From: Bythopirellula sp.
Lineage (GTDB): Bacteria; Planctomycetota; Planctomycetia; Pirellulales; Lacipirellulaceae
Direction: 5' to 3'
DNA: 64,000 nt
NCBI GenBank assembly: GCA_965216565.1
Contig: OZ244170.1
Span: 2,336,001-2,400,000 of the forward strand
In this document: positions 27,014 through 62,465 of the stretch, one piece after another
Layout of the letters: every line of letters begins with the position of its first letter
How positions within the stretch are numbered: the stretch's first letter is position 1
Notes under the pieces: model-generated
Database searches by the model: none
The model's input: only the letters and a program-made list of their open reading frames with translations
Told to the model about the DNA's origin: nothing
Made by a program: the position numbers and the translations under genes

Positions 27014-27985
27014 CTAGCAGTCGTCCGATAGAAACAATCCTAGGACGCCAATACCGTAGAAGGAATACTCGACATCAACGACATCATCCCAGGCAGCGGC
27101 TCGAAAACCGCCGGATTCTTCCTGTAATGATGTTGCGTATGACAGACATTTCTTCCTATCGAATGCTGTTATTACATCCAAATCTGCTGCGGTGTGAAGT
27201 CCCGTAAATGTGCTCAGCAAATCGGCAATCGGTATCTGCGTGTTGGCACGCAGCCCGCCTTCGTCGGTAACCGAATTGAATAGGAATTCGGCAACGGAAT
27301 TCTTGAGATCCTCGTCAACGTGGTGCTGTCCTAGCACTCGTAGCGTACCAATAGCTGCAGCTGTCGGATTGGTTCCGCTGCGACGCATCACCCTAATTTC
27401 GACAAATCCGCCATCGTCACGATGTTGGTTGAGAACGAACTCGCAAGCTCGCTCAGGATCTGGCAATGGGCGATCCATAAGCTGATACGTCAAGGCAATC
27501 AGGAACGTTTGATAAGTGCTACTAGCCTGACCCTCAAACGTCTTCGCGTATCCACCATCCTCGCGCCGCAGACTTTCGAATGTGTCGGCTAGCTTCTCCG
27601 ACCACTCTGGGGATAGTTCACCGAGAACTTCGATCCCAGAACTCGATTCCAGCAACCTTGCTGCAAACACTAGCGACATCAGGTCGATTAAGGTCGTTTC
27701 GCCCTGAAGCTGCTGCCGCAGGAAATCTGCAACGCGATTGGCGACACGGTCGTCCAATTCTCCCAGTAGAACTAATCCACGCAGCGCGAAAGCGGTGTAG
27801 TACAAATCGCTTCGAACATCCCTGCCACAAAAACCACCATCCTGAGTTTGAAAAGAAGCAATCCGTTGTGCATGAAGCTTGCGGTCACTCTCAGGAATAC
27901 GTGCGACTCCCTCTGCCAATCGCATTGTCAATTCGACGAGATAAGGAAGATTTGCGTCGATTGTATACCCCGCACACCAACTCAA
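27014..27985 (-). CDS. Single alpha/alpha-barrel prenyltransferase/squalene-oxidase-repeat protein (GGTase beta-like)
   Basis: Repeated Q/RxxDGG(F/Y) motifs (QTQDGGF, RREDGGY, HRDDGGF, QEESGGF), DLYYT and DVEYSFYG. Start uncertain. Confidence 0.8.
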   Translation of the reverse strand: MSWCAGYTIDANLPYLVELTMRLAEGVARIPESDRKLHAQRIASFQTQDGGFCGRDVRSDLYYTAFALRGLVLLGELDDRVANRVADFLRQQLQGETTLIDLMSLVFAARLLESSSGIEVLGELSPEWSEKLADTFESLRREDGGYAKTFEGQASSTYQTFLIALTYQLMDRPLPDPERACEFVLNQHRDDGGFVEIRVMRRSGTNPTAAAIGTLRVLGQHHVDEDLKNSVAEFLFNSVTDEGGLRANTQIPIADLLSTFTGLHTAADLDVITAFDRKKCLSYATSLQEESGGFRAAAWDDVVDVEYSFYGIGVLGLFLSDDC

Positions 27986-27989
27986 GTAG

Positions 27990-28412
27990 CTACTCGGTCA
28001 CATACTTTCGGAGTTCATTGGCTAGCTCCGCTGGTATCGGTACAGACGCTAATGGCTGATCTGGGTCAATACGGCAACAGACACTCGTCATTTGTCCCTC
28101 CGCCACTTCACGTCCCTGATGCGTAAAGTTGAATCGGTAAGAGATGCTCTTTGTTCCCAGTCGCGTAATTCGGATTGAAATCTCTAGCAACTCCTCACAA
28201 CGGGCCGGAGACTTGAAGTCGCAAGAGACAGCGACCCGCGGGAAACTCAACGTTTGACCTTCGAACGTGGAGTAGATGCTAAAGCCCGTAGAACGTAGCA
28301 ATTCGTGCTCGGCCGATTCCATGTAATGGAAGAACGAGGCAAAGTGCATGATGCCCGCCATATCCGTGTCGTGAAATTCGACGAGTCGCGTCGTACGGAA
28401 TGGTTCGGCCAT
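27990..28412 (-). CDS. Hot-dog acyl/aryl-CoA thioesterase (4HBT/YbgC family)
   Basis: VEFHDTDMAGIMHFASFFHYMESAE and FKSPAR motifs. Confidence 0.88.
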   Translation of the reverse strand: MAEPFRTTRLVEFHDTDMAGIMHFASFFHYMESAEHELLRSTGFSIYSTFEGQTLSFPRVAVSCDFKSPARCEELLEISIRITRLGTKSISYRFNFTHQGREVAEGQMTSVCCRIDPDQPLASVPIPAELANELRKYVTE

Positions 28413-28469
28413 CGTAAAGACCGGAGGGCAGGGGAGAGGCAGCGAGGACAAAGACTCTTGGCAATAAGC

Positions 28470-28712
28470 CTAGCTTCCAGAGTAAGGAAGCAACGCCATG
28501 AATCGTGCGCGTTTGATCGCCTTGGATACCGCATGCTGGCTAGCAGCCTGGCAACCTGTCTTACGACGACTGACGATACGACCGTGGCGATTGGTAAGCT
28601 TGCTCAGCAAGTCTAAATCTTTGTAATCAACATACATTGGGCGTGGACGGACACCATCGACGCACACGGGATCTTTTTTAACAGCTTTTGGAGCGGACTT
28701 TCTCTTGGGCAT
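28470..28712 (-). CDS. rpsR: 30S ribosomal protein S18
   Basis: VDYKDLDLL, GRIVSRRKTG and AIKRARFMALLPY motifs. Confidence 0.96.
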   Translation of the reverse strand: MPKRKSAPKAVKKDPVCVDGVRPRPMYVDYKDLDLLSKLTNRHGRIVSRRKTGCQAASQHAVSKAIKRARFMALLPYSGS

Positions 28713-28783
28713 TTTCTGTTCTTACTCTCGAATTAAGGAGCTTTTCGATGTGACACTGGGGAGTGTGGCCTGCTGGGTACTTT

Positions 28784-28932: not shown

Positions 28933-29565
28933 CTACGCCTGCTCTTCTTTTCTTCGTAACACGCCGGCAGTGATGGCAAAACGAACTAGCTCGGCAAGGG
29001 AGTCAGCCCCCATTTTCTGGAAAATCTTTTGACGATGGTTTTCGACGGTCCGAATACTGACATCTAGCTTTCGAGCTACTACTTTATTGGCGTCGCCCGC
29101 CACAATGAATTCCAAAACTTGGCGTTCCTTGGGCGTAAGCGTTTCGAGTCGTTGCATGATCGAGCCACGATGCTGCTCCATCTCCCAGTTTTTCACATCA
29201 TTGGCCAGGCCAGTCCGGATGGCGTCCCATAGTTCGTCGTCGTCACATGGTTTTTCCATGAGTGTCAGCGCACCGTTTCGCATGGCTCGCACTGTAGTGG
29301 GTGTCGTGGCGAAAGCGGTCAGTACGACTACTGATATTGTGACGCCTCGATCTGAAAGTTGTTCCTGCAACTCAAGCCCACTCATCCCGAGCATACGGAC
29401 ATCAGTTACCAAGCAAGCGGGTCGATGACCTTCGTAGGCTTCGAGAAACTCTTCCGCTGAGGCAAAGCCTTCACTCGGGACACCCATAGCACTAACCAGT
29501 GCCATTACCGCCTTGCGAACTTGCTGATCGTCGTCAACGACATAGACAATTGCATTCTCGATCAT
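28933..29565 (-). CDS. FixJ/TodT-type response regulator (REC + LuxR HTH)
   Basis: VVDDD, VTDVRM, EKP and LTPKERQV...NKVVA...RTVENHR motifs. ATGA overlap with the kinase. Confidence 0.92.
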   Translation of the reverse strand: MIENAIVYVVDDDQQVRKAVMALVSAMGVPSEGFASAEEFLEAYEGHRPACLVTDVRMLGMSGLELQEQLSDRGVTISVVVLTAFATTPTTVRAMRNGALTLMEKPCDDDELWDAIRTGLANDVKNWEMEQHRGSIMQRLETLTPKERQVLEFIVAGDANKVVARKLDVSIRTVENHRQKIFQKMGADSLAELVRFAITAGVLRRKEEQA

Positions 29566-31142
29566 GAGTTATTTCTCTTAGGGATAGGTAAGGATACCAC
29601 GAATGTCGCTCCTGGGCCTGTGTTAGAAAAGGCACTGATCTTTCCCCCATGTGCCTCCGCAATAGTTTGGCATAAAGAAAGGCCCATGCCCATGCCGTGG
29701 GGCTTCGTCGTGTAGAAAGCGTCAAAGAGCCGTTGTTTTTGCTCGTCGGAGATACCGCAGCCCGCATCGCAAAACGAAAGTTCAACATTTTGCTTGTCCG
29801 ACTTGGTTGAAATCACCAAGTTTCTTCGTTGTTCTGGCACCTCGTTCATCGCGTCGTAGGCATTGATAAGCATATTGATGCATACCTGCACTAGTTGCAC
29901 TTGATCGCCGCGTACAGTGGGCAAATCGACTGACAAGTCCCAATGCAATCGTGCACCAGCGCGTCCTGTTTCAAACGATATTATCTCTGCAGCTTCTTGG
30001 ACAATGTCATTGAGGTCAAGAGACTCGAATTGAATCGGCTTTGGTTTCGTGAAAGTCCGCAGATGACGTATTATTTTTGCCGTGCGAGATACGGCTTCGG
30101 AGATTTCCTGCATGCAGTCTTTAGCCCGGGCGCTGCCTTCGGCTGTTCCGCTGTCGAGGCTCCTTCTCGCTGCTTCTGCAAATGTTTTTGCCGCGTGCAA
30201 TGGCTGATGAACTTCGTGAGCGATACCTGCCACTAACTCGCCCATCGTGGCAAGTCTGGATACATGAGCTAGATAAGCTTCCCGCTCGCGAATTGTATCG
30301 GCAGCTTCCTTTAAGTCAGTTATGTCGCGGCCAACAGACTGGTACTCTTCCAGATTCCCTTGGTCATCGAACAACGCGCGATTCGTCCAGTGATTCCAAC
30401 CAATCGATCCATCGGGACGGTAGACGCGATGCTCGCTCGTGATCGAGGGCCTTTCTGGCGTCAGCGATGCGATTTCTCGCTCCACTCGTGCGCGGTCGTC
30501 CTCGTGGATGGTTGGGATGAAGGTCGATCCGACAAGTTCGTTACGCGACTTATGGACATACCGACAGTAAGCCTCGTTGACGAACGTGTATTTTCCGCCG
30601 GGTAACCATCTGGCGATAAACTCTGTTTGGTCTTCAACGACGTTTCGGTACCGCGACTCACTCTCCTTCAGCTTCTCGTTAATTCGGATCAATTCGGCCG
30701 TCCGCTCGGCAACGCGTTGCTCGAGGTCCTTCTTTAGTCGCTGCAACTCTTCTGCTGTCCGCGTTTCCGTCGTGATGTCCTTGGCGATTCCTTCCATCGC
30801 CCGATAGTTTCCCGCCTCGTCAAAGAGAGCATGTTCCTGAACTTCGAGCAAACGTGTGCTGCCATCCGCGTGCGTTACTTCCAAATCGAACTTGAAGAAT
30901 GCGGTCCCAGCTTCGACAGCTTGCTGCACTTGTTCGGCTGTTTGGCGCCCGCGATTCTGCTCGCCTACCCACTCTCGCCAATTGTGCCCTAGCATTTCCT
31001 CAGGACGAAATCCCAGAACTTGTTCTACGGAGGGACTGATAAAAGTGATTTCACCTACCGGAGCATGGGTGTAAAAGATGTAGTCGCCGATTGCGGTCGG
31101 CAACATCTCGCTCCAGGTATCTGGTCTTTGATCAGTCGACAT
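29562..31142 (-). CDS. Cytoplasmic two-PAS sensor histidine kinase (FixL-like HisKA)
   Basis: Two PAS/PAC (KDIT, RDIT), H-box GIAHEVHQPL, N box, DAGCGI and FYTTKPHGMGMGL. No TM segments. Confidence 0.92.
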   Translation of the reverse strand: MSTDQRPDTWSEMLPTAIGDYIFYTHAPVGEITFISPSVEQVLGFRPEEMLGHNWREWVGEQNRGRQTAEQVQQAVEAGTAFFKFDLEVTHADGSTRLLEVQEHALFDEAGNYRAMEGIAKDITTETRTAEELQRLKKDLEQRVAERTAELIRINEKLKESESRYRNVVEDQTEFIARWLPGGKYTFVNEAYCRYVHKSRNELVGSTFIPTIHEDDRARVEREIASLTPERPSITSEHRVYRPDGSIGWNHWTNRALFDDQGNLEEYQSVGRDITDLKEAADTIREREAYLAHVSRLATMGELVAGIAHEVHQPLHAAKTFAEAARRSLDSGTAEGSARAKDCMQEISEAVSRTAKIIRHLRTFTKPKPIQFESLDLNDIVQEAAEIISFETGRAGARLHWDLSVDLPTVRGDQVQLVQVCINMLINAYDAMNEVPEQRRNLVISTKSDKQNVELSFCDAGCGISDEQKQRLFDAFYTTKPHGMGMGLSLCQTIAEAHGGKISAFSNTGPGATFVVSLPIPKRNNS

Positions 31143-31241: not shown

Positions 31242-32531
31242 TTAAACTACCAATTCGGCATAGAGTGATAACGTTTGTTGTGCCATCTCTGCAGAATGAT
31301 ACCGATCTTCTACCGCCAACCGTCCCGAGCTGCCCAGTTGTTCCGCCTTCACTGGATTAGATATTATCTCAGCTAAGGTGTTGGCCAGATCGGTGGAGTT
31401 CTCCGGCTCGTGGAGTAGGCCCGCCTGAGTGTCGGTGATCAACTCGGTGAACGAACCATGGTTGGGTAACACGACTGGGACGCCATTGGCCATAGCTTCC
31501 AGAGCAGGGAGGCCCTTGCTTTCGCGATAGATAGTCGGTGTGCTGAAAACGTGGAGTGATTGGATAAATGCTATCTTTTGGGCTCGATCTAGCTCGCCCA
31601 CGTAGCGAAATCGACCGGCAAGGGGCCCCTCACTAACGCGCTGTTGGATCTCTGCCAAGTAGGGGCGATCGCGACTGCCTAAATAGCCTGCCGCGTGAAG
31701 CTCGAGTGCAACGAATTCTGGACGTTCCGCTAATTGCTCGCAGGCATCTACTAGCAGATGCAGTCCTTTCTCGTGACAGACGCGTGCCAGATAACCGATG
31801 CGCGGTGCGCTCGACAAATTCTCAGCGGCCCGCTGCGAGTGCCCCTCCAAATTCAGACCGTGCGGAATGACACGAATCTTTTGCCGCTCAACTGAAAGAT
31901 AGTCAGACATGAAATTTGCATAGTATTCATTCAATGCCACAAAGGCGTGGACGTCGGCTACACGTTCGCGCAATAGCTGCCTCACTTGTTGATAGTATGG
32001 TGGCGAAAGCTGTTCGATAAAGATGTCCTCACCCGAAAGTGAGCAGACAACCGGCGGACCACAACGTTCGGCAATCATACGAGCCAGTCCGAGCATCATC
32101 GAATTCGAGAGGTGCACCACGTCCGGCTTGACTTCGTCAATCAGCCAATCGACGAGGGCTTCCAATTCCTTTAATTGATTGCCACTTTCGCCACGTAGCA
32201 TTGAGACAGTCAAATCGCCTAACTGACTAGGATCGACACTGTCGGCCCGCCCCGATAATTGCCGCAGAATGGCAGGATGATCGAGCCAGCGATCTATCCA
32301 CCTCGGCAGGTGACGAAACAATTTCCACTTCTGCTGCAGGTAGACGTTGATTCCCCCAAAGAAGACGCGTTGTTCACTGACATCGGATTCGTCGGTTCGG
32401 ATTGGGGTATAGATGGGGACTAATACGACGTCCTCGCCCATCTTCAGCATTTGAGCTGCCAAGGTGTTGTCGTGCAGACAACTGCCGCAATACATTCCCG
32501 CGGCACCAGCAGCTAGATAGGCGATTCGCAT
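31242..32531 (-). CDS. GT4 glycosyltransferase with N-terminal GMYCGSC motif
   Basis: ARVCHEKG and ESKGLPALEAMANG (EX7E) motifs. Start at MRIAYL. Confidence 0.88.
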   Translation of the reverse strand: MRIAYLAAGAAGMYCGSCLHDNTLAAQMLKMGEDVVLVPIYTPIRTDESDVSEQRVFFGGINVYLQQKWKLFRHLPRWIDRWLDHPAILRQLSGRADSVDPSQLGDLTVSMLRGESGNQLKELEALVDWLIDEVKPDVVHLSNSMMLGLARMIAERCGPPVVCSLSGEDIFIEQLSPPYYQQVRQLLRERVADVHAFVALNEYYANFMSDYLSVERQKIRVIPHGLNLEGHSQRAAENLSSAPRIGYLARVCHEKGLHLLVDACEQLAERPEFVALELHAAGYLGSRDRPYLAEIQQRVSEGPLAGRFRYVGELDRAQKIAFIQSLHVFSTPTIYRESKGLPALEAMANGVPVVLPNHGSFTELITDTQAGLLHEPENSTDLANTLAEIISNPVKAEQLGSSGRLAVEDRYHSAEMAQQTLSLYAELVV

Positions 32532-32579
32532 GAGAATGACTAACCACAGAGGCTCGAAGGGCACGGAAACTACTTGATA

Positions 32580-34139
32580 CTAAGAAGCCTCGGAAAAAAA
32601 CTTTTCCAGGGTCGCTGCTTTCGGACGCTTAGTAATCAGAGAGACAGCAACTAATGCAATGGTCGAAGCAGTAAATATGGCGGCTACTGGCATGATTTCG
32701 TAAACGCTTTCGCCAAGAGAAATGTTCAGAGAATATGTGCGGTTCTTTCCAAACCCAGATAGGTAGAACAAATAACCCCATGTCGTGGTGGCCGCCAATA
32801 TACTGGCAATGGCTCCGGCCTTGGTGAGGCGTTGCCAATAGACAGACGCAAATATGAGAGGAAACAGAGAGGAAAAACCAGAGAAACACCAAACCGCCAA
32901 GGCGAACACACTGCGGTTGTTCGAGAGACTCATCAGATAGGTCAGTATGACAATGCAGATGATGAATCCTCGCGTAGTTACCACTTGGCCGCGATCGCTG
33001 AGAGGTTTGCTTCGATAATGGTTCACAACATCAGTACTAAACATGGTCCCCAGACAGAGGAACTGACTATCCAGGCTAGACATGATCGCTGCTAGAATTC
33101 CCGCAGTGAGTAGCCCCCCCAACACCGGCGTGGTTTGGGTTTTGACCAAGAACGGTAGAATCGCGTTTGGATTCTTCGGCAGAGGAGGTGCGGAAGGGAC
33201 CAAACTCGTTGTGGCCCACACTCCTACTAGGACGCAAGGCACCCAGACGATCATGATAAATAGCGGATGAGCCACGACAGGAAGCTTGAATGAGTTGGCA
33301 CTCTTGGCAGTCAACCAATGTTGAAACAAGTGGGGAAACATACCTACGGATAGCGGTATGAGCATATAAGTGAAAAACTTTGTCTTCGACATCTCTACTC
33401 GAGTAGCTTTGTCGAGTGGAATCGCTTCACCGAGTATCTCCAAGTTCTCAAACAGAGTCGACTTGCCACCCAGTTTATTGGCAATCACGCAAAAGGTGAC
33501 AATTCCGAGCACCATGAAGACCATCGTTTGAAAGGCATTGGCCCACGCAGTCCCCCGCATCCCCCCCATAAACACGTAGCAGAGGACAACCAAACAAATT
33601 ACCAACGAACCAATTTGCGGCGGGACACCGCCATGGGTGGCGGGACTATCAGTGGCAAACATCGCCAAATCGGGATACGCGCCGGCTGTCATGCTCTGGA
33701 TGACAATTCCCCCGGACATCACTCCGATCAACAAGTAAGGAATCACCAATCCCACGAGGATAGGAAACAACAGAATCCCGATAAAATCACTGTCGAGCCT
33801 TTCTCGAAAATACTCGATTTGCGTCGTGTAGCCATGCTCTTTCGCAATGGCCCAGACTTTCACCCCGATTAGGAAGAAGCAAAGGGAATGAATAATTCCG
33901 CTTGAGGAGGCTAACATTCCATAGACGCCGATTCCTTCTTTGAATGCTTCGCCGCTCGATCCCACCAAAGCAAAGGCTGTCATCGTCGTTCCGAATAACG
34001 ACATGAGCAACAGGAACGGCCCAATCGAGTGACTCGCTAGTTGGTAATCTGATTTTGTCCCAGAAAAAAACCGACTCGCCACGTAACCCAGTAAGAGCAG
34101 TAATCCCAAATAACCAGCGATAATCCAGAGCTGCGTCAA
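32580..34139 (-). CDS. Sodium:solute symporter (SSS) family transporter
   Basis: Many TM helices, GGMRGTAW and AAIMSSLDSQ motifs. TTG start overlaps the upstream TGA. Confidence 0.9.
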   Translation of the reverse strand: MTQLWIIAGYLGLLLLLGYVASRFFSGTKSDYQLASHSIGPFLLLMSLFGTTMTAFALVGSSGEAFKEGIGVYGMLASSSGIIHSLCFFLIGVKVWAIAKEHGYTTQIEYFRERLDSDFIGILLFPILVGLVIPYLLIGVMSGGIVIQSMTAGAYPDLAMFATDSPATHGGVPPQIGSLVICLVVLCYVFMGGMRGTAWANAFQTMVFMVLGIVTFCVIANKLGGKSTLFENLEILGEAIPLDKATRVEMSKTKFFTYMLIPLSVGMFPHLFQHWLTAKSANSFKLPVVAHPLFIMIVWVPCVLVGVWATTSLVPSAPPLPKNPNAILPFLVKTQTTPVLGGLLTAGILAAIMSSLDSQFLCLGTMFSTDVVNHYRSKPLSDRGQVVTTRGFIICIVILTYLMSLSNNRSVFALAVWCFSGFSSLFPLIFASVYWQRLTKAGAIASILAATTTWGYLFYLSGFGKNRTYSLNISLGESVYEIMPVAAIFTASTIALVAVSLITKRPKAATLEKFFSEAS

Positions 34140-34345
34140 TTGCCGCTCCTTTTCGCATCGTCGATCTTAGGCCAATAGAACTTGATCGCCCAAAACCAAA
34201 GTGCACTTGCAGCAATCGAAATACAGGTGTGGTAAAAGAGCCCCACTGGCAGGAAGCCGAAGACCAACCGATCGTCCGTCCAAAACCAATTGTCTTGGTG
34301 CAAGACAATTAGAACTAAGACCATTGCCCACAATTTCACTGGCAT
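34136..34345 (-). CDS. Small two-TM SSS partner (DUF3311-like)
   Basis: LHQDNWFWTDDRLVFGFLPVGLFYH. Translationally coupled to the SSS gene, as is typical of such partners. Confidence 0.8.
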   Translation of the reverse strand: MPVKLWAMVLVLIVLHQDNWFWTDDRLVFGFLPVGLFYHTCISIAASALWFWAIKFYWPKIDDAKRSGN

Positions 34346-34481
34346 CGAAGGTAGATCGCTTGGTTCGGAGGGCCGGGTGGGTCCTAGGACTGAGCCGAAC
34401 GAGAAGTTCGATCGTCCACTACGCTGGTCACAAGCTAGCAGATCAAGCACAAGAATTGAAGACCGGGCCACTCGTGGCCCA

Positions 34482-38180: not shown

Positions 38181-38302
38181 CAACTCCTCCTTTCCGTTCG
38201 AACGTCGTCTCGTGCCCTGTTTCAATCGTGGGCTAAATCCAGCGAATCGGCCTCATCACAGATCCGCCTCAAGTTTCCATCGTTAGCATAGCAAAACTAG
38301 GG

Positions 38303-40255: not shown

Positions 40256-40453
40256 CGAGCCGACTGGCTCCGGGGTTGGTGGGGCAGCCGAACCAACCGG
40301 TCCGACGCAAATCAAATTTTAAGTGCAGTAGCCCAACGTGTCGAGTGCCGCGACCGCCAGCAATCGGGGGGGAAACCTTTCTGCCGCTAGTTTGATAGGC
40401 CCAAAACAGGCATAATATTTTGTATCAAAATCGTCCAAACCCAATAGGGCCGC

Positions 40454-45473: not shown

Positions 45474-49184
<3,711 letters not shown>

Positions 49185-55361: not shown

Positions 55362-55820
55362 TCACTTGTTCAATTGCCCTTTGATCGTCTGCTGAGTTAC
55401 TTCCCACACGGCTGCCAGATGCACCAGATATTCTTTGGGACTTAAAAGTTCGTGGCTCGCGACCCGTAGCTCAAACAGCCAGCCATTGCCGTACTTGTCG
55501 ACGTTGATGGCCGAAGGATCTTGCAACAAACTGTCGTTGATGGCCACCAGCTCACCGCCACAGGGTGCGTAGAGCGAGGCTTCTGCCTTCTGGCTTTCGA
55601 TCTGCCCGATCTCTTGCTTTTCAACCAGCATCGTGCCGGGCGGATGATCCCAATCGAGGAAGTACACATCTTGCAGCAAACGGACCGCGTAGGCGGCAAA
55701 GCCAAACTGGAATCGATCCTGGCCAGCCTCCTTGGCCCACATATGATTTCGCGCGTAAAGTCGATCCGACGGAAACTCCGCCTGATACTCGCCCATCATA
55801 AAGTGCAACTCGTCTACCAT
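55362..55820 (-). CDS. Glycine-cleavage H-like lipoyl-carrier protein (orphan)
   Basis: YARNHMW, IESQKAEASLYAP (lipoyl Lys retained) and DPSAINVDKYGNGWL motifs. Confidence 0.82.
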   Translation of the reverse strand: MVDELHFMMGEYQAEFPSDRLYARNHMWAKEAGQDRFQFGFAAYAVRLLQDVYFLDWDHPPGTMLVEKQEIGQIESQKAEASLYAPCGGELVAINDSLLQDPSAINVDKYGNGWLFELRVASHELLSPKEYLVHLAAVWEVTQQTIKGQLNK

Positions 55821-55848
55821 TTCTATCAAACGCTAACTTTCACTTTGT

Positions 55849-55980: not shown

Positions 55981-55996
55981 GTTCCTTAAACTGTCC

Positions 55997-57304
55997 CTAC
56001 GTGTAGCGGACATCCTGGTGTTGCGGTTCAAAGAATGCGGGCAGTAAGGCATCGGCCCGCAACAGGCCCTCGCGAGTTAGCCGAATGTGATCCCCGTCGA
56101 TCTCTGCCCAACCTTGGTCGGCATAGTCCTGCCAAACGTCGGCCCACTTCTCTAACACATTCTGCCCAAACTTCTGCTGGAAGTAATTCGTATCCAGATA
56201 ACCCCGCTTCAAAAGCAGAATCATTTCCCGAATCAACTGTTGCTCCGGAGTCGTCTCCAGCGCTCGACTCAACGGCAGCTGCTCTTCTTCCAGCGAATGA
56301 CAGTAAGCCTCCCACTCCGGAAGGTTTTGGTAGTGGACCCCAGAAACATGGCCAAAACTGGCAATCCCTGTCGCCAGCAGATCGCTCCCTTGCCACAGAT
56401 TATCGCGGTAGCTGAAGATCACGCGCGTCGGATCTTTCACAAGTGTATACGCGCTAGAAATGGAGTATCCCGCATCGACAAAGCGATCGAATGCGTAATC
56501 GACCCACCGCCGCTTAGTCGGCCAGTCGGCCACGGGCGTTTCTATCTTGTTGCCTAAAATGTCCTGCGAGTAAACCGTGTTGAATGGCAGCTCCATTTGA
56601 TAAATCGTGACGCTGTCGGGCTCCATGGCCAGCGCCTGCTCGACGGCGTCCTGCCATTTGTCGTCGGTATCACCCACCATGCCCGCAATCAGATCGATGT
56701 TGACGTTGTAAAACCCAGCCGCTTGGATCCAGGGCCAAGCACGCTCGATCTCTGCCGACTCGTGGGCTCGACCATTGTTTCTAAGAATCTCGTCGTCGAA
56801 GTGCTCTACCCCCAGGCTCAGCCGCGTGACGCCCAATTCGCGGAGCGTATGGACTTTGGCCTCGCTCAACGTGCCCGGTTCGCACTCGAACGTCACTTCT
56901 TCTGCCTGATCCCAATTGATGTTGGCCTGCAGTCGTTCGACCAATCGCTTCAATTGCCGGGAACTTAAAAACGACGGCGTGCCCCCACCGAAGTACACAA
57001 ACCGAAAGGGCCGATCCCCCATCACCGGCAGCGCACTCACCAGTTCGATCTCTTTGGAAAGGGCTGCCAGATAGCGCTCTACCTCTTGCGAGTTCTTATC
57101 GGTGAACACTTTGAAGTAGCAGAACTTGCAGCGTTTGCGACAGAAGGGAATATGCAAGTACAAACCCAGAGGAACCTTTGCCGGCTGCGAAGCAAAGGCC
57201 TGTCGCACCGCTGGGAGATTCTCCTCCGACCATTGCGAGAAGGGCGGATAGTTACTGATAAAGTAACTTCCAACTTCCGTCTTTTTCGAATCTGTGGCCA
57301 TCAA
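55997..57304 (-). CDS. HemN-like (class C) radical SAM enzyme
   Basis: LYLHIPFCRKRCKFC, YFGGGTPS, RLSLGV, NIDLIAG, and a HemN_C-like tail (LTREG). Confidence 0.88.
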   Translation of the reverse strand: MMATDSKKTEVGSYFISNYPPFSQWSEENLPAVRQAFASQPAKVPLGLYLHIPFCRKRCKFCYFKVFTDKNSQEVERYLAALSKEIELVSALPVMGDRPFRFVYFGGGTPSFLSSRQLKRLVERLQANINWDQAEEVTFECEPGTLSEAKVHTLRELGVTRLSLGVEHFDDEILRNNGRAHESAEIERAWPWIQAAGFYNVNIDLIAGMVGDTDDKWQDAVEQALAMEPDSVTIYQMELPFNTVYSQDILGNKIETPVADWPTKRRWVDYAFDRFVDAGYSISSAYTLVKDPTRVIFSYRDNLWQGSDLLATGIASFGHVSGVHYQNLPEWEAYCHSLEEEQLPLSRALETTPEQQLIREMILLLKRGYLDTNYFQQKFGQNVLEKWADVWQDYADQGWAEIDGDHIRLTREGLLRADALLPAFFEPQHQDVRYT

Positions 57305-57328
57305 ACAGGTGCTTTCGCTCGATTCACG

Positions 57329-58474
57329 TCAATCTCTCTCGCTGCTCTCTTCGCGCGGCCCAAAGCAATACAACGTTCCATCGCTATTGGCGATCACAAG
57401 TTTTCCGTCGCTCACCGCTGGAGAAGCGAGAAAGTTCCCTCCAGCCTCATACTCCCAGTTTTGCTTGCCTGTTGCCAGTTCCAGCGAAATCAATCGGCCT
57501 CGCTTCGTGCCGAACAGTACGGAATTCCCCACGATGATCGGAGCACTCTCCACGGGCATCCGGACCGACGTGTCCCATTCTAGCTTGCCTGAGTCGGGAT
57601 TGAGAGCGTAGATTTTCTTTCCTTTGGAGGTGTAAACCACCGTTGCGTCGCTCGTGGCAGCGGAGTACGACTCCTGTTGCGAGTCGTCTTCGTAGGTCCA
57701 GGTGACCTCTAAATCGTCGATGCGATAGAATGTTCCTCCGAAGGTCCCAAAAAACATGCCTTCCTGCCATCGCGCGGGAGTCGAACCGGTTTGTCCTGCC
57801 AATTCGAAACTTTGAGTCTCCTGCCCCGTCTGCAAATCGACCGAGTGCAGTCGGCTATCGCAACCGGCGAGAAACACATTGCCGGCAACGATCGTGGGCC
57901 AGCAACGTAGCGGAGCCTCGATTTCGAACTTCCACTGCAGTTTGCCGGTGTCGGCAGCGAGGCAAATCAATTCGCCTGCCTCAGTGGTCACCAACACTCG
58001 GCCTTCATGCACATTGGGCCCGGCATACATCTCGCCGCGGGCCTCGTACTGCCAAAGCAACTTTCCTGAATCCGCCGCCAATGAGCGGAGCATGCCATTG
58101 AAATCGCCGACGAACACCTTGCCATCCACCACCGCGGCTGCCGAAATAAAGCCACTGTCTGCGAACTCTTTCTTCCACAGCAACTTTCCATCCGCGATTT
58201 TGACAGCGTAGAAAGTGCCATCCACGTCTCCTAGGTAGGCAATCCCCTTGGCAATGACGGGGGTCACCTCGAATCCACTTTCTTCGATCTCAAAACGCCA
58301 CAATTCTTTTGGCTCTTGCGAGAATTGGCCAGCGGCAGTGCCAGTCGCGGCTCGATCGCCCCGTTCGAACGGCCAATCGCCTGCTGCCGAGTAAGCTCCC
58401 AGCACAAATAGCGCGATTCCAAATAGGCTGAACAGCCGGAGCGCATCGAAAGCTGCCCAGTCACTGCGCTGCAT
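57329..58474 (-). CDS. Exported PQQ-like/BamB-type beta-propeller protein
   Basis: Signal peptide, DWPFERGD, and repeated A(L)DxxxGKLxW blades. Start may be upstream (the ORF opens at 58591). Confidence 0.85.
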   Translation of the reverse strand: MQRSDWAAFDALRLFSLFGIALFVLGAYSAAGDWPFERGDRAATGTAAGQFSQEPKELWRFEIEESGFEVTPVIAKGIAYLGDVDGTFYAVKIADGKLLWKKEFADSGFISAAAVVDGKVFVGDFNGMLRSLAADSGKLLWQYEARGEMYAGPNVHEGRVLVTTEAGELICLAADTGKLQWKFEIEAPLRCWPTIVAGNVFLAGCDSRLHSVDLQTGQETQSFELAGQTGSTPARWQEGMFFGTFGGTFYRIDDLEVTWTYEDDSQQESYSAATSDATVVYTSKGKKIYALNPDSGKLEWDTSVRMPVESAPIIVGNSVLFGTKRGRLISLELATGKQNWEYEAGGNFLASPAVSDGKLVIANSDGTLYCFGPREESSERD

Positions 58475-58480
58475 GAGAAA

Positions 58481-58556
58481 TGGACCGTCCGCGCTAGCCA
58501 CGGGTGCCTCGCCCAGGCTTACACTATCGGCAACTGACGCTCGTGCGTTCGGATTC
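58481..58556. repeat. Degenerate GCGCTAGC-family REP doublet
   Basis: TGGACCGTCCGCGCTAGCCACGGGTGC ... GCAACTGACGCTCGTGCGTTCGGATTC aligns with the repeat at 62761-62839. Confidence 0.55.
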
Positions 58557-58574
58557 TCGATTTGAGTATCTACT

Positions 58575-59723
58575 CTAGTAAGCTTTTTCATATAGACCGA
58601 GCAAGTCGTCGACGTCGACGGCGATTGGATTGAACGTGGCGGTCCACTGCTTGGCAGCTTCTTCCGCGAGTGTCGCTAAGCTCTCTTTCGGCACTTCCTT
58701 CTCTTGCAGTGTACCGGGCAGCCCCGCCTGCGTGGCGATCGAGGCAAGAAAATCGGCAAGCTCTTCACTGCCACCGGAGGGACAATCCGCAAACTCGGCT
58801 GTCACCGCAAGCAGTTCTTCGTACCATGCTTCGCACTCTTTTGCGTTGAATCGCACCACCTGCGGCAACATCAGCGCAATGGCCTCTCCATGGGCAATGC
58901 CGAAGTTGGCCGTTAAGGGATTCGCAAGGGCATGGGCAGCACCTAGCATGGAGTTTTCGATCGCCACGCCCGCGCAACAGGCTCCCAACTGCATATGCGA
59001 TCGCGCTTCGATATCGTCCGGCGTTTGCAACACCTTGAGATAGTTGGGTGCAAGTTCCAGCCACGCCTCCTGACTAAAATGGCAAGAAATTTCCGTTCGC
59101 TTGGTGGTCACAAATGTTTCGACCGCATGGGAAATGGCATCGAAGCCCGAGAGGGCGGCCACACGCGGAGGCTGCGTAAGCGTCAACTCTGGATCGAGTA
59201 CCGCAATGCGAAAGGCGGCGCGTTTATCGCCACAGGCCATTTTCACGTGCGTCTCAGCGTCGGAGATCAGCGCGAACGATTGAGTCTCGCTGCCCGTGCC
59301 CGCGGTGGTGGGTACCGCAATCATGGGGAGCAACGGGCCCGTGGCCTTTCCTACACCCCAATAGTCCTGCATCCGCCCGCCACAGGAATAGAGAAAGTTA
59401 ATCCCCTTGGCACAATCCATCGAGCTTCCACCGCCAAGCCCAATAATCAGTTCCGGCTGAAACCCTTTTGCCTGTTTGAGTCCCGACTCAACGTGGTCGG
59501 TTGTAGGATTTTCCTCGACGCCACCAAAGAGCGCCGTTTCGAGACCTGCCTTCTGCAACGAGGTCAGACCCCGTTCGGTATGACCAGCCGAGATCACCCC
59601 CTGATCGCTGACAACCAGCACCCGCCGCGCTTCCAAATCCTGTGCAAAACTGCCCAGCTCATCAAGGCGGCCGACACCAAATTCGATCCTGGTCGGCGAA
59701 GCGTACTGGTCGATTTGGGCCAT
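58575..59723 (-). CDS. Iron-containing alcohol dehydrogenase
   Basis: NP, GGGSSMD, PTTAGTGSE, DAISHAVE, AHALA and HGEA motifs. Confidence 0.93.
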   Translation of the reverse strand: MAQIDQYASPTRIEFGVGRLDELGSFAQDLEARRVLVVSDQGVISAGHTERGLTSLQKAGLETALFGGVEENPTTDHVESGLKQAKGFQPELIIGLGGGSSMDCAKGINFLYSCGGRMQDYWGVGKATGPLLPMIAVPTTAGTGSETQSFALISDAETHVKMACGDKRAAFRIAVLDPELTLTQPPRVAALSGFDAISHAVETFVTTKRTEISCHFSQEAWLELAPNYLKVLQTPDDIEARSHMQLGACCAGVAIENSMLGAAHALANPLTANFGIAHGEAIALMLPQVVRFNAKECEAWYEELLAVTAEFADCPSGGSEELADFLASIATQAGLPGTLQEKEVPKESLATLAEEAAKQWTATFNPIAVDVDDLLGLYEKAY

Positions 59724-59845
59724 GGCGGTCGCAGATTCAGAGGTGCGGTCGGGGGGAGTGGAATTATTGAAGCTTCGAAAGATTTGGCAAGTTTAAATCA
59801 AATACTTGTTACATCTAGCCAAATGACTCAGTGCAATCACAATGA

Positions 59846-61270
59846 CTACTCACTATGCACCTGCAAGGCACGATTGCGATACAACAACTCGGTGAGATTG
59901 CCTTCGTGGGGTTGTAGCCAATTGAGTTGCGGAGTGGGAATCGGCCCTAGGTTGAGCCGGTCGATATGGGTGGTAGCAATCAATTGTCGGCGAAACGCTT
60001 CGTCGTCTGTAATCGCCGATGCGACTAGGGTGGGTCCAATTGAATCGAGCATCTTCGATTGCTCGCATTGCACAACGCTTACTAGCGGAAACATGTACTC
60101 TTTGTTGGCGGCCGCGCACTCGGGAGATTCGCAGTGCAACACAGTGGGACGTAAATAAGCGCAAGTTTCTCGCCTGTCTAATCGCGAACCATACTCAGCC
60201 GTGGCATGAGTTGTGCCGCTATCTTCGGCGTCGCGCTCGACCATCTTCCAAATCGCCTCAGCAACATCTGCATTGGTAAACGCCGCGAGCCCCGCTTCGG
60301 GATCCTCAGGCGGCAACGCGGTAACAGGTCCCAATCGCTCGGCAAGCGCCGCGGCAATCTCCTGTGTGTGACGCGATGCATAAATGCTGGAGCAGTTAAT
60401 ACAACTCCGCCCACCATTGCGGTAGACGCTATCGACCATCAAATCGAGATGCTGTTCCCACTCGTCGACTTTGTCGTCGCCCAACAAGATCTTGCTGAAA
60501 CCTGGACCATGCACCTGCACGCCAGGATTCCCGGCGTATTGTTGAATCGTCTGCTCCCCTCCAAAAATCATGCTCCGCCGATAACTCGCCAACAGGGCAC
60601 CTCCGACGTCCGCCCCACTACCTGGGTAAATGGAAATTGCAGCAGCGGGAATGCCGGCCTCAGTCATCGCGGCCGCCACGCGGAAGGGTGTCCAAGGTTC
60701 TTGCGAACCGGGCTTGAGCGCCAACCCAATTTGCAAAGCCACCACTGGCAGCCATAACGTATGCACGCCGGGAGAGTTTGACGGCAACACGGCACCCAGC
60801 ACGTCGGTCTGGGCCTGATAGCTCACCGTCACGTTGCGACCCTCTTCGCCATAGCCGCGGGCAAGAATGTTCAGATCAAGACCGCGCGTCAGGGCATCGA
60901 GAATTTTATCGATGTTCTTCAGCACAAACGCGTTCTTTGCCACGTTGGCCTCGCACATGGAATGCGGCATGCCTGTGGTGGCCGACTGCTGTTTGACAAA
61001 GTCGGCGGGCGACTGCGTGGAATCACCAATCTTGAGATTCCCCGACTCGAATAACTCGCCTGCTTGCTTACAACAGGCAATCAGCTCCGCAGGATTCATC
61101 TGTTGCAACGATTCACGTGCCTTGGCGGCATGTCGAGAATCACGCCGTACGATTCCCGCACCTGTGAGTCCGACGCGAGCAACAACCTCTCCCGTGAGGA
61201 AATCTATAATCTCCTCAGATTCCAAAGATTCGTAGGGCTCACCCCAACGAAGCGGAGAAAGATTCACCAT
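59846..61270 (-). CDS. ALDH-fold acyl reductase (GriD/EhpG-like)
   Basis: LPSNSP, LKPG and catalytic NGGRSCINCS. HGPGFSK replaces the ELGG general-base motif. Confidence 0.75.
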   Translation of the reverse strand: MVNLSPLRWGEPYESLESEEIIDFLTGEVVARVGLTGAGIVRRDSRHAAKARESLQQMNPAELIACCKQAGELFESGNLKIGDSTQSPADFVKQQSATTGMPHSMCEANVAKNAFVLKNIDKILDALTRGLDLNILARGYGEEGRNVTVSYQAQTDVLGAVLPSNSPGVHTLWLPVVALQIGLALKPGSQEPWTPFRVAAAMTEAGIPAAAISIYPGSGADVGGALLASYRRSMIFGGEQTIQQYAGNPGVQVHGPGFSKILLGDDKVDEWEQHLDLMVDSVYRNGGRSCINCSSIYASRHTQEIAAALAERLGPVTALPPEDPEAGLAAFTNADVAEAIWKMVERDAEDSGTTHATAEYGSRLDRRETCAYLRPTVLHCESPECAAANKEYMFPLVSVVQCEQSKMLDSIGPTLVASAITDDEAFRRQLIATTHIDRLNLGPIPTPQLNWLQPHEGNLTELLYRNRALQVHSE

Positions 61271-61334
61271 ATTTAGTACCAGTGTGAGAAACCTTGTGCC
61301 CTAAAGCTGCGCCGTCAGAAGAAGTCGCGGGCGA

Positions 61335-62465
61335 TTAATAAACCCCAACCGTTGTGGATTGTTCCAATTTGTGGAATGGCCGCACGCCGCTCACACCGTC
61401 CCACGGATACCAGTTACTCGGAGGTTCTCGCTCTCCCTCGTCCCGTTCCAGGAATCCCGGCACGAAGAATTCCTTGGTAAGTGTGGTGAGTTTGATGCGC
61501 CCTGTCTCACCGTACTCTACGAGTCGATTGGAGTCTTCGAAGTCGACGACCTCGACCACTGCGCGAGGTTGTGGCGAGTGGTAAGTTATCTTGTAACCGT
61601 TCTCTTTACTAATGGGTTCACTGCAAGCGAGCCCCATGAGCGTATTTCCGTAGGTAGGCGTCATATAGATGCCACTTTCCTGCGGCGGCCCGCCGAAGAG
61701 TTCTTCCACGCAGAACTTTGTCCACTGCGGCGTAAACTCCGTGCCGCCAGAGAATATGCCGCAGATGCCCATTTCTGCCAGGCTCGTCCCACGATCTTCC
61801 AATGCCAAGCACAGTGCCTCGATCAACTTCGGCGTGCCAAACATGCATCGAACATCGTGGCCAGCTTCGAGAATTGTAATCGCCTGATCGATGCAGTGAT
61901 TCTTATATTCCTCGAGATGCTCCATCCACCCTTTCTTTATGAGCTTCACGACCCAGCGGGGATCGAGATCGATACAAAACGAAATACCACCGCGATGTTG
62001 GGCTAAATGCTCGACTGCCAACCGCAGCCTGCGCGGACCACTTGGCCCCAACATCAACCAGTTTGCCCCAGGCGGAAAATAGCGGTCCGGCAAGGTATCG
62101 CTGAACAGCGAATAATCGGTGCGAAAATCATCAATTGAAATTCGACTCTTCGGCGTGCCCGTCGTTCCTCCAGTTTCGAACACATAGACGGGCTTGTCCG
62201 CCATGGCCTGTGGCACCCAACGCCGCACTGGTCCGCCCCGCAACCACTCGTCTTGAAATGGCTCGAACTTCTGCAAGTCTTCGAAGCAAGAAATTTCCGA
62301 CAGTGGATCGAACTTGAGCGAACGTTTCTTTTCCAGCCAAAATGGGCAGCCTGTCGCATCGTCGAAGTGCCACCGCACTGTCTTTACAGTATGAGCATCC
62401 AACAGTGCTTTGGCAGAGTCGACGCGTGTGAGCGCATCTGACTGATCGTTCGACAAAGGAGACAT
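61335..62465 (-). CDS. Truncated ANL-type adenylating enzyme (GriC/EhpF-like)
   Basis: ETGGTTGTPK P-loop, GGT, TYGNT and ERD motifs. No C-terminal ANL subdomain. Start at MSPLSND. Confidence 0.72.
   Translation of the reverse strand: MSPLSNDQSDALTRVDSAKALLDAHTVKTVRWHFDDATGCPFWLEKKRSLKFDPLSEISCFEDLQKFEPFQDEWLRGGPVRRWVPQAMADKPVYVFETGGTTGTPKSRISIDDFRTDYSLFSDTLPDRYFPPGANWLMLGPSGPRRLRLAVEHLAQHRGGISFCIDLDPRWVVKLIKKGWMEHLEEYKNHCIDQAITILEAGHDVRCMFGTPKLIEALCLALEDRGTSLAEMGICGIFSGGTEFTPQWTKFCVEELFGGPPQESGIYMTPTYGNTLMGLACSEPISKENGYKITYHSPQPRAVVEVVDFEDSNRLVEYGETGRIKLTTLTKEFFVPGFLERDEGEREPPSNWYPWDGVSGVRPFHKLEQSTTVGVY

Follow-up and report, generated by a model that had tools for sequence, protein, structure and literature searches.

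Three groups of biosynthetic genes lie apart from one another on a 64,000-nucleotide stretch of DNA from the planctomycete Bythopirellula sp. (Pirellulales, Lacipirellulaceae; GenBank assembly GCA_965216565.1, contig OZ244170.1, positions 2,336,001 to 2,400,000), and they raise the question of whether they serve one pathway and, if so, what this pathway makes. A reading made from the letters alone (hereafter the sequence-only reading) had called these groups blocks A, B and C and had seen in them an undescribed terpenoid-aromatic pathway. Taking the whole stretch as our window (G000:C1:2336001-2400000, in a one-contig genome of 5.21 Mb that is 94% complete by markers), we find that the three blocks are fragments of one supercluster, which is unbroken in related Pirellulales genomes and which in this window has been cut into three by genes inserted later: metH, msrAB and others, as well as a kinase pair with rpsR. 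The supercluster likely makes a halogenated and glycosylated compound derived from hydroxybenzoate, which is predicted to be joined to a cyclised polyprenyl lipid; to this joint reading, drawn from homology and gene order, we give a probability of about 0.5, the coupling of the two halves being its least secure step.

Gene content of the window

Long open reading frames between 24 and 64 kb of the window were examined with Pfam and NCBIfam scans and through their translations, and every gene named in the sequence-only reading was found at the place and on the strand given there. The genes concerned are the following, with the short names used below in brackets.

27014-27985, minus strand: prenyltransferase-like single alpha/alpha barrel of 323 aa, block A (barrel; Pfam PF00432, 64 bits)
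27990-28451, minus strand: hotdog thioesterase of the 4HBT/YbgC type, block A (thioesterase; Pfam, NCBIfam)
28470-28712, within the A/B string: rpsR, a separator
28933-31142, minus strand: PAS histidine kinase and LuxR-type response regulator (Pfam)
31242-32564, minus strand: GT4 glycosyltransferase, block B (GT4; Pfam)
32580-34139, minus strand: sodium:solute symporter, block B (symporter or SSS; SSF, 121 bits)
34136-34570, minus strand: small membrane protein with DUF3311 at residues 81-135, block B; the real start is probably near 34345
34482-35720, minus strand: flavin-dependent halogenase homolog, block B (halogenase; Trp_halogenase/FAD_binding_3)
35743-36267, minus strand: 174-aa protein with a predicted chorismate-lyase fold, DUF98/UbiC-like by structure model, block B (lyase-like gene)
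36339-38225, minus strand: fusion of DUF116 (135 bits) with a trans-polyprenyl diphosphate synthase (polyprenyl_synt, 142 bits), block B (synthase or PPS)
38303-40315, minus strand: class II cyclase resembling squalene-hopene cyclase (SHC), with SQHop_cyclase N and C domains, block B (cyclase)
40454-41686, plus strand: divergent radical SAM protein, block B (rSAM; Radical_SAM, 53 bits)
45474-49184: metH, a separator (Pfam)
49251-50402: msrAB, a separator (Pfam)
54133-55212, minus strand: 4Fe-4S dicluster protein of 359 aa, block C (ferredoxin-like; Pfam, NCBIfam)
55362-55829, minus strand: GcvH-like protein, block C (GCV_H, 73 bits)
55997-57304, minus strand: HemN-like radical SAM protein, block C (HemN-like; Radical_SAM and HemN_C)
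57329-58591, minus strand: PQQ_2/BamB-like beta-propeller with a hydrophobic N-terminal segment, block C (propeller; Pfam, sequence)
58575-59723, minus strand: iron-containing alcohol dehydrogenase, block C (Fe-ADH; Fe-ADH 163.6 bits and ADH_Fe_C)
59846-61270, minus strand: protein of the aldehyde dehydrogenase (ALDH) fold, block C (ALDH-like; Aldedh, 85.5 bits)
61335-62564, minus strand: short adenylating enzyme of the EhpF/GriC type, block C (AMP; weak AMP-binding Pfam match)
62872-63336, minus strand: 154-aa protein upstream of AMP, of no known family (no Pfam or NCBIfam match)

The AMP gene probably starts near 62465, as the sequence-only reading had written, and its orthologs align from about residue 27-50. 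The separators rpsR, metH and msrAB lie between the blocks as claimed, and the interval from 41.7 to 54.1 kb is filled by metH, msrAB, an EEP-family gene, a DUF2461 gene and several open reading frames without a Pfam family. The division into three holds for the window as such, but blocks A and B are really a single co-directional string, broken only by the kinase/regulator pair and rpsR. That the window holds no ubiA was also correct; three UbiA-family genes lie elsewhere in the genome.

The three blocks are contiguous in related genomes

A scan of one genome per species with the lyase-like gene gave 248 relatives, of which the best 80 loci were kept and searched by tblastn with all window proteins (genomes and loci are referred to by G and L numbers). 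Locus L116 of G032 holds a run of 13 genes on one strand in the order AMP, ALDH-like, Fe-ADH, propeller, HemN-like, GcvH-like, ferredoxin-like, rSAM, cyclase, synthase, lyase, thioesterase and barrel, the presence of ALDH-like and Fe-ADH being deduced from a 2.5-kb gap. The 15 genes of G033/L132 are this run with a halogenase and a symporter added, with rSAM on the opposite strand and ALDH-like again deduced from a gap, and G031/L087 has the same run with GT4 and about 5 kb extra. Contiguity in other genomes, which the sequence-only reading had named as the support to look for, is therefore observed for blocks C, B and A in the first two genomes and nearly so in the third. Furthermore, blocks B and C are contiguous in G034/L128 and G035/L107, and probably in G021. 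Ten of the 80 loci have block-C genes at most 10 kb upstream (L087, L093, L107, L110, L115, L116, L117, L120, L128 and L132), and AMP stands just upstream in all five of these block-C-bearing genomes that were examined. In L107, AMP occurs in four pieces in different frames (G035:C1:6584908-6585948) of a long-contig metagenome-assembled genome (MAG), breaks that could be frameshifts or assembly errors.

The surroundings of the lyase-like gene were counted across the 80 loci. Where at least 4.5 kb is available upstream (68 loci), the cyclase is present in 57, the synthase in 49 and both in 48, while nine have the cyclase without the synthase, one the synthase only and ten neither. Where at least 9 kb is available downstream (48 loci), GT4 is found in 37, the halogenase in 35, the thioesterase in 32, the symporter in 20, the kinase in 18, the response regulator in 17 and the barrel in 14; the kinase/regulator pair lies between GT4 and the thioesterase and is a frequent member of the cluster. 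The barrel occurs only where rSAM is present (14/21 against 0/23) and directly follows the thioesterase in 13 of 14 loci. The grouping of these genes recurs in dozens of genomes and is far beyond chance. The best 80 loci carry Planctomycetota/Pirellulales labels (Bythopirellula, Lacipirellula, Adhaeretor, Bremerella and many MAGs) with one exception, L053, a contig with cyclase, PPS and lyase genes at 69-73% identity that is labelled as a Granulosicoccus (gammaproteobacterial) MAG, probably through a binning error.

Presence was also counted by gene in 30 relatives of the same order and the genome of the window, together 31 genomes.

AMP: 29/31 genomes, with identities of 68-85% for full-length matches
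Lyase-like gene: 28/31 genomes
Cyclase: 26/31 genomes
Barrel: 19/31 genomes
Ferredoxin-like gene: 19/31 genomes (18/30 relatives, 17 of them with the cyclase)
rSAM: 18/31 genomes
GcvH-like orthologs of at least 56% identity: 14/30 relatives, 13 with a DxDD-type cyclase and one (G001) without a cyclase match

These distributions are nested and not identical, AMP and the lyase-like gene being nearly universal. The rSAM and barrel genes are restricted to genomes whose cyclase is at least 49% identical, and the ferredoxin-like and GcvH-like genes are distributed likewise except in G001, which has both and no cyclase; five genomes with a cyclase of 41-47% identity (G005, G007, G008, G010 and G012) are without rSAM, barrel, ferredoxin-like and GcvH-like genes. 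Around the cyclase of 18 relatives, the synthase is present in 18/18 loci and directly adjacent in 17, the lyase-like gene comes next in 16, the halogenase in 12, and rSAM is adjacent in nine. Around AMP of 15 relatives, ALDH-like is adjacent in 15/15 loci, Fe-ADH is next in 13/15, propeller and HemN-like follow in 10/15, and an ortholog of the 154-aa protein lies upstream, adjacent or within about 7 kb, in 11/15. The ferredoxin-like gene adjoins rSAM in L087, L116, L120, L132 and G021. The distance from block C to the cyclase is 21-43 kb in close relatives and 0.24-2.7 Mb in others. From the occurrence of AMP in 29/31 genomes, cyclase-less ones included, block C was first read as an unrelated housekeeping operon; this reading was dropped because of the 80-locus survey and of the draw of genomes from the rest of the phylum.

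Two ancestral operons in the rest of the phylum

The latter was a single even draw of 120 Planctomycetota genomes outside the order, in which a strong AMP homolog is one of at least 50% identity. The cyclase was found in 31 genomes and strong AMP in 22, of which 20 have both and two AMP only. The lyase-like gene was found in 14, all with AMP and 12 with the cyclase, and 7/14 have it on the strand of AMP, 4-6 kb further downstream. Two units emerge from these genomes. The first is a co-directional aromatic operon of 11 genes: DUF3311, SSS, AMP, ALDH-like, Fe-ADH, propeller, HemN-like, lyase, halogenase, GT4 and thioesterase. It is complete in L134 (G121), L136 (G099) and L139 (G147) and lacks only the thioesterase in L140 (G046), with variants in L133 (G043), L135 (G123) and L141 (G067); DUF3311-SSS is its first gene pair in L134, L136, L139 and L140, HemN-like directly precedes the lyase-like gene in these four and in L133, and the thioesterase is next after GT4 in L134, L136 and L139. 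The second is a terpenoid operon of rSAM, DUF116-PPS, barrel and cyclase, which is separate in L137, L138 and the same-order genome G020, and in which the barrel lies between PPS and cyclase (G020, G111 and G107). It stands back to back with AMP-ALDH in L137 (G111), with a GcvH-like gene upstream, and 8.5 kb from SSS-AMP in L138 (G107).

The aromatic operon holds genes from all three blocks, and the natural units hence cut across the division that the sequence-only reading had made: the terpenoid unit takes in the barrel, GcvH-like and ferredoxin-like genes, and the thioesterase belongs to the aromatic one. There were two ancestral operons, and in Pirellulales the terpenoid unit sits between the HemN-like and lyase genes of the aromatic unit, the barrel having moved behind the thioesterase. 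In G020 (L021, G020:C30, 13771-19571), six genes precede the terpenoid operon on the same strand, namely an ArsR gene, a class V aminotransferase resembling cysteine desulfurases, a GcvH-like gene, a CobW GTPase, a 146-aa open reading frame and a ferredoxin-like gene, and they hint at a dedicated supply of sulfur or of a metal cluster. At L133 (G043:C1, 15033-17395), the aromatic operon is followed by a UbiA-family gene (202 bits), then DUF420 and a DeoC aldolase; lying beside DUF420, the UbiA-family gene is presumably heme o synthase, and we have not counted it as a coupling enzyme.

This arrangement bears directly on whether there might be two pathways in a shared neighbourhood, one making soluble halogenated phenolics or glycosides (such as the series of bromo-hydroxybenzoate, -benzaldehyde and -benzyl alcohol, dibromo-anisic acid included) and the other a separate cyclic polyprenoid membrane lipid standing in for hopanoids, with adjacency reflecting history or co-regulation. 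In several Pirellulales genomes the aromatic operon encloses the terpenoid one, both reading in the same direction, the barrel keeps its place after the thioesterase, G111 again has the operons side by side and G107 has them close together, and the cyclase accompanies nearly all strong AMP homologs of the draw, all of which speaks for more than neighbourhood. Yet in other classes each operon is found by itself as a compact and complete unit, each unit occurs without the other, and within G043, G077, G099, G103 and G125 the two halves are 0.16 to 4.7 Mb apart; moreover, no coupling enzyme was found in the cluster or among the genome's UbiA genes, and the sole planctomycete product tied to a lyase and halogenase is a small non-terpenoid acid. 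We regard two separate pathways as a possible account, at clearly less than even odds.

The cyclase is not a hopene cyclase

The sequence-only reading had allowed that its proposal would fall if the blocks had independent distributions and never co-localised, or if the cyclase were the housekeeping hopanoid Shc. The blocks co-occur and co-localise, as described above, and the cyclase is not a hopene cyclase. It scores 107 bits against the hopene cyclase model TIGR01507 of NCBIfam, below the cut-off of 431.1, and 120 bits against the general squalene-cyclase model (cut-off 323); a six-frame search of the genome with TIGR01507 gives 71.3 bits at best, with no place reaching the cut-off, and the best match to a solved SHC in a PDB sequence search is E=5e-16. 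In the ESM Atlas, only planctomycete clusters of the SHC family are listed for it. No gene with PF00494 (SQS_PSY, covering squalene synthase, HpnC/D and phytoene synthase) was found in the one-contig genome, in a search whose control found the family in 8/14 reference genomes. A housekeeping SHC was thus rejected on the grounds that TIGR01507 stays far below its cut-off and that there is no squalene source. That the cyclase could still be an ordinary squalene-hopene cyclase with unrelated genes around it would fit its SQHop_cyclase N and C domains and its DxDDTA motif, but this is already contradicted by these scores and by the dedicated polyprenyl synthase present in 18/18 and 48/57 cyclase loci, and we give it practically no weight. 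Two papers place the planctomycete clade outside SHC (PMC7306690, PMC12414744), and according to a preprint on the distribution of hopanoids no member of the Pirellulales has an SHC (10.1101/2025.07.29.667474).

The class II proton-donor motif is present in the cyclase as PDADDTAAA in the translation, and the synthase beside it would supply head-to-tail polyprenyl chains. The best 120 homologs of the synthase all have both the DUF116 and the synthase domain, the latter scores 141.6 bits against PF00348 (cut-off 27), and the first Asp-rich motif (FARM) reads DDI[EQ]D in 129/129 sequences; the second motif is NDxxD, not DDxxD, in 125/129 (the eight commonest forms counted). The DUF116 domain is Cys-rich with conserved Cys motifs, and its structure is modelled as a helical bundle with a Rossmann-like core, for which Foldseek gave nothing in the PDB at E<=0.001 and VIA-align, run wide, gave generic Rossmann-like rows only (Z<=6.8) and no functional lead.

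The smaller members of the terpenoid unit diverge from their known relatives. The barrel matches the beta subunit of RabGGTase with E=5e-9 in a PDB sequence search, which at E<=1 lists prenyltransferase beta subunits only and no MstE entry. The zinc ligands of these subunits are Asp, Cys and His; at the Cys and His columns the barrel has Leu and Tyr (PDVCYSW aligned to IADLLST, DPFHT to DVEYS), which are kept in its orthologs. The CxxxCxxC motif of rSAM is CNLRCQGC in 29/29 orthologs and is complemented by three conserved C-terminal Cys, a partial SPASM/twitch-like set that falls short of the full seven-Cys SPASM motif; its best NCBIfam matches are SPASM families, all below cut-off (best 68.6 against 400). 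The GcvH-like protein is likewise below the cut-offs of the GcvH models (87.3 against 117 and 72.3 against 115.85), and its lipoyl-lysine column (IESQKAEAS; IES.KAE) holds Lys in 8/8 orthologs; a second, separate gcvH-like gene lies elsewhere in the genome.

A clade of cyclases without DxDD offers a view on what these smaller members go with. Among 56 cyclase orthologs beside the lyase gene, 37 keep both Asp of DxDD; the motif is altered in the other 19, with NSFD, NSLD, NASD, NTTA and TTxA among the forms seen and with one of the 19 (L077) being an alignment gap. At loci with room to see it, rSAM is adjacent in 25/34 cases where DxDD is intact and in 1/18 where it is lost, the one case being the L077 artefact. 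DxDD-less cyclases occur in L017-L020, L031 and 18 of the loci L053-L132, the gene still lying beside an apparently intact synthase, and the relatives that carry them are the same five that are without rSAM, barrel, ferredoxin-like and GcvH-like genes; these five keep the synthase with its first motif, the lyase, the halogenase and GT4. The loss of DxDD is coupled with the loss of four accessory genes, in genomes that are related, so that it may represent one or two evolutionary events only. In L017, L018 and L020, a gene for a PQQ_2 propeller of 453-468 aa, a paralog of that of block C, lies beside the DxDD-less cyclase and is transcribed divergently from it; in L020 a symporter gene stands between the two.

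Proteins of the aromatic unit

The supply of the aromatic acid would rest on the 174-aa protein, which belongs to no Pfam family at E<=0.001; it matches PF01947, the family of Rv2949c-like chorismate lyases, with E=0.021 and 15.2 bits (cut-off 22), and its profile finds PDB entry 2nwi with E=0.043. A structure model from 32 homologs (pLDDT 93.4) is matched by Foldseek to the DUF98 protein 2nwi (E=9e-9, TM 0.72-0.78), to the E. coli chorismate lyase UbiC (1jd3/1g81/1fw9, TM 0.57-0.62) and, among further matches, to UTRA ligand-binding domains. One source (JGI) labels homologs as chorismate-pyruvate lyase, and R72, R114, R123, R154, E167 and E170 are invariant columns of the homolog alignment. 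The modelled structure argues for a chorismate-lyase/UTRA fold, and lyase activity is predicted.

The product of 34482-35720 is a flavin-dependent halogenase homolog with predicted activity, and the best Trp_halogenase match in the genome. In the PDB it finds PltA (1e-53), then 8zop, CndH (3e1t), Bmp2 (5bva), Mpy16 (5buk), RadH and CmlS, geranylgeranyl reductases scoring much lower for the same flavoprotein. The signatures of flavin-dependent halogenases are GxGxxG, WxWxIP and a conserved Lys. These appear here as GGGPAGS, WFWYIP and a Lys in QKVG aligned to KKFG of PltA; WxWxIP is WFW[YHF]IP in all 49 orthologs, and the Lys is kept in all eight of the commonest forms listed, which cover 36 of 47 orthologs.

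AMP matches EhpF (PDB 3hgu) with E=1.4e-41 over 341 residues (61-401), against an EhpF chain of 369 aa; the length of the window protein is 409 aa at most. EhpF, like GriC, is a short adenylating enzyme that takes an aromatic acid to the aldehyde with a partner of the ALDH fold (EhpG, GriD). The ALDH-like neighbour of AMP has the nucleophilic catalytic Cys in 15/15 orthologs, and in all 15 HGPG replaces the ELGG of aldehyde-oxidising ALDHs, which would suit a thioester-reducing enzyme; it is predicted to be the aryl-acid reductase subunit that partners AMP. The thioesterase has as its best PDB match 5wh9, titled 4-hydroxybenzoyl-CoA thioesterase (E=3.5e-13). HemN-like remains below the cut-offs for ChuW (199.7 against 400), HemN (178.4 against 325) and HemW (170.3 against 205.4). 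The N-terminus of GT4 carries a CGSC motif (MYCGSCLHDN) that looks conserved and is unusual among GT4 enzymes.

The nearest NCBIfam models of the symporter are uptake permeases, all below cut-off, and DUF3311-SSS heads the operon in L134, L136, L139 and L140. The aromatic operon could on this basis import an aromatic or other carboxylic acid, for example from algae, reduce it to the alcohol and glycosylate it for detoxification or storage, and reduction followed by glycosylation is a common logic of detoxification. We consider uptake and conversion improbable, given that the same operon holds a chorismate-lyase-fold gene as an endogenous source of acid, that a halogenase and a HemN-like rSAM are unusual in catabolism, and that the symporter is absent from 28/48 Pirellulales loci where the lyase, GT4 and thioesterase stay.

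A prenylated phenol or quinone acting as a cofactor in redox or C1 metabolism, made by the logic of ubiquinone or plastoquinone with a chorismate lyase, a polyprenyl synthase, a flavoprotein and a methylating rSAM enzyme, is a further possible product in place of a secondary metabolite. No known quinone route includes a cyclase or a GT4, and the flavoprotein has the signatures of a halogenase, not of a hydroxylase. No UbiA, UbiD or UbiX is found in the cluster, menaquinone genes lie elsewhere, and many members of the phylum are without the cluster entirely. The nearly universal presence and high conservation, within Pirellulales, of the AMP/ALDH-like pair (29/31) and the lyase-like gene (28/31) and the ferredoxin-like and GcvH-like redox carriers would suit such a cofactor, to which we nevertheless attach very little probability.

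A search for the enzyme that would attach the prenyl chain led to the three UbiA-family genes of the genome, namely heme o synthase, an MqnP-like gene beside mqnE/ubiX/menG and EboC, none of which fits a dedicated 4-hydroxybenzoate prenyltransferase. The EboC-type gene lies between two TIM-barrel genes resembling sugar-phosphate isomerases/epimerases (G000:C1:1756000-1764000, L052), in a region that looks like an ebo-type cluster.

Proposed pathway

The supercluster could then work as follows. The UbiC-fold protein would convert chorismate to 4-hydroxybenzoate, and the symporter may import acid as well. Bromine or chlorine would be added to the phenol by the flavin halogenase, AMP and its ALDH-fold partner would adenylate the carboxylate and reduce it to the aldehyde, Fe-ADH would yield the benzyl alcohol and GT4 would add a sugar. 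On the terpenoid side, a head-to-tail polyprenyl diphosphate would come from the synthase fused to DUF116, the DxDD cyclase would cyclise it in a protonation-initiated reaction, and rSAM, the ferredoxin-like and GcvH-like proteins and the zinc-less barrel might serve radical or redox tailoring or the preparation of the substrate. The sequence-only reading had held that the functions interlock chemically, and the UbiC/DUF98 fold, the EhpF homology, the halogenase signatures and a DxDD cyclase in a genome without squalene synthase support this by homology; the prenylation step that it had included is unsupported, as no aromatic prenyltransferase was found.

The joint product is favoured because the operons are interleaved and co-occur, and it is weakened because no recognisable aromatic prenyltransferase is present in the cluster or among the genome's UbiA genes and because each unit occurs alone. 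Several further results weigh against it. In the draw from the rest of the phylum, 11/31 cyclase-bearing genomes are without a strong AMP homolog, and the halves can lie far apart in one genome; within the order, G019, G022, G025, G026 and G006 have AMP and the lyase-like gene and no cyclase match, and G001 has AMP only of these three. The 10/68 loci without cyclase or PPS upstream have lyase, halogenase, GT4 and thioesterase all the same, in the Lacipirellula-type order lyase-halogenase-GT4-kinase-regulators-thioesterase, and the halogenase is missing beside the lyase-like gene in 19/63 loci. The genomes compared are related and not independent, so that the co-occurrence counts overstate the case. 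Finally, the 174-aa protein stays below the cut-off of the chorismate lyase family, and the second motif of the synthase departs from DDxxD.

A more specific form of the joint reading can be proposed, tentatively and as an unlikely outcome in its entirety: a new class of envelope lipid of Pirellulales and other planctomycetes, in which a polycyclic head-to-tail polyprenoid made by the SHC-like cyclase, a squalene-free surrogate of hopanoids, would carry a halogenated and glycosylated 4-hydroxybenzyl head attached by a prenyl coupling of a new type. The coupling enzyme would be the DUF116 domain, the zinc-less barrel, or the twitch-type rSAM with its ferredoxin-like and GcvH-like helpers, and dibromo-anisic acid would be a shunt product.

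Relation to known systems

What is new here is the combination of known enzyme families around an orphan clade of cyclases, parts of which are already published. The closest precedent on the aromatic side is 3,5-dibromo-p-anisic acid, found in the marine planctomycete Planctomycetales strain 10988, for which a preprint proposes baaA, a chorismate-lyase-like gene, and baaB, the best halogenase homolog of the genome, adjacent and on one strand, together with an unlinked O-methyltransferase and without genetic proof (Panter et al., 10.1101/723874); in a 2025 review, the pathway is listed as merely postulated (PMC12078418). The window shows this order too, with the best halogenase match of its genome next after the lyase-like gene on one strand, and 35743-36267 and 34482-35720 are, to judge from the descriptions, putative orthologs of BaaA and BaaB. 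The cyclase, polyprenyl synthase, GT4, thioesterase and EhpF/GriC-like operon do not appear in the accessible text of that report. Dibromo-anisic acid, one of the few known natural products of planctomycetes, is thereby reframed, with its proposed genes inside an 11-gene operon that crosses classes; because these two genes sit in a conserved 11-gene operon, the real end product is probably not dibromo-anisic acid.

On the terpenoid side, planctomycete 'SHC-like' proteins are described as keeping the catalytic residues, as usually having a polyprenyl synthase nearby and as probably using another precursor (Santana-Molina et al. 2020, PMC7306690), and as the main uncharacterised branch, whose substrate is asked for (PMC7306690, PMC12414744). 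The window cyclase matches this description in that it diverges from SHC, keeps DxDD and has a polyprenyl synthase adjacent; the sections seen of these papers give no link to the lyase/halogenase/acid-reductase operon, the accessory set or the loss of DxDD. Our literature search found no paper joining cyclase-PPS, lyase-halogenase and the EhpF/GriC-type operon, and nothing relevant on DUF116; for BaaA and BaaB it gave the preprint of Panter et al. and no other paper. The word 'undescribed' in the sequence-only reading therefore stands for the whole cluster, but not for the baaA/baaB pair or the pairing of SHC-like proteins with polyprenyl synthase, both of which are in print. For the SHC-like clade, the analysis supplies defined neighbouring genes, a setting without squalene, a control clade in nature that has lost the motif and a link to an aromatic pathway, and the question of its substrate becomes testable.

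Other systems resemble single parts of the cluster. EhpF/EhpG and GriC/GriD are two-protein aryl acid reductases, of the phenazine D-alanylgriseoluteic acid in Pantoea and of grixazone in Streptomyces. The window shares with them an EhpF-homologous AMP beside an ALDH-fold protein with its Cys, followed by an alcohol dehydrogenase, and differs in host phylum and pathway context, the partner being likened by fold and Cys; hydroxybenzoate is hereby suggested as a substrate for this widespread type of acid-reductase pair. In mycobacteria, p-hydroxybenzoic acid derivatives and phenolic glycolipids arise through the Rv2949c lyase, FadD22 and glycosyltransferases, which place a glycosylated phenol on a lipid. 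An Rv2949c-like lyase, an adenylating enzyme and a glycosyltransferase are common to both systems, whereas the mycobacterial lipid is a polyketide and not a terpenoid, and the mycobacterial system has neither a halogenase nor an acid-reductase pair. Bmp5, a brominase of the single-component type, also decarboxylates its substrate. The bmp5/bmp6 bromophenol genes of Pseudoalteromonas, according to 10.1101/723874, join a chorismate lyase with a flavin brominase acting on 4-hydroxybenzoate. In the window, too, a lyase is paired with a flavin-dependent halogenase, but this enzyme is closest to the PltA/CndH/Bmp2 type and the cluster has no P450 coupling enzyme.

The sequence-only reading had also seen a likeness to the merosterol logic of cyanobacteria with different enzymes. 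In that pathway, as described in PMC12414744 (citing Moosmann et al. 2020), the cyclase MstE is a monodomain protein. The likeness lies in a benzoate-derived head, class II cyclisation of a polyprenyl chain and a single-barrel protein of 300-400 aa in the set. The differences are that the window cyclase is didomain, that the barrel matches protein prenyltransferase beta subunits by sequence, with no MstE entry at E<=1, and that the cluster has no UbiA-type prenyltransferase. More generally, the present case indicates that a cluster scattered in one genome can be reassembled from its relatives.

Other genes of the window

Between 3540 and 23224, the window carries a lipid-type cluster with genes for an MMPL transporter (1277 aa), a condensation-domain-like protein, an SDR, a PPTase and a 3048-aa type I polyketide synthase (PKS) with the domains KS-AT-ACP-KR-DH, together with a fatty acyl reductase (NAD_binding_4), a MaoC dehydratase and a second SDR. 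Neither this PKS/MMPL lipid cluster (3.5-23 kb) nor the haem peroxidase next to block A showed synteny with the supercluster in 113 loci of other genomes. The peroxidase, of the animal type (465 bits), lies at 24100-26713 just downstream of block A and is adjoined by a protein of 226 aa that weakly matches PEP-CTERM and dockerin-like families.

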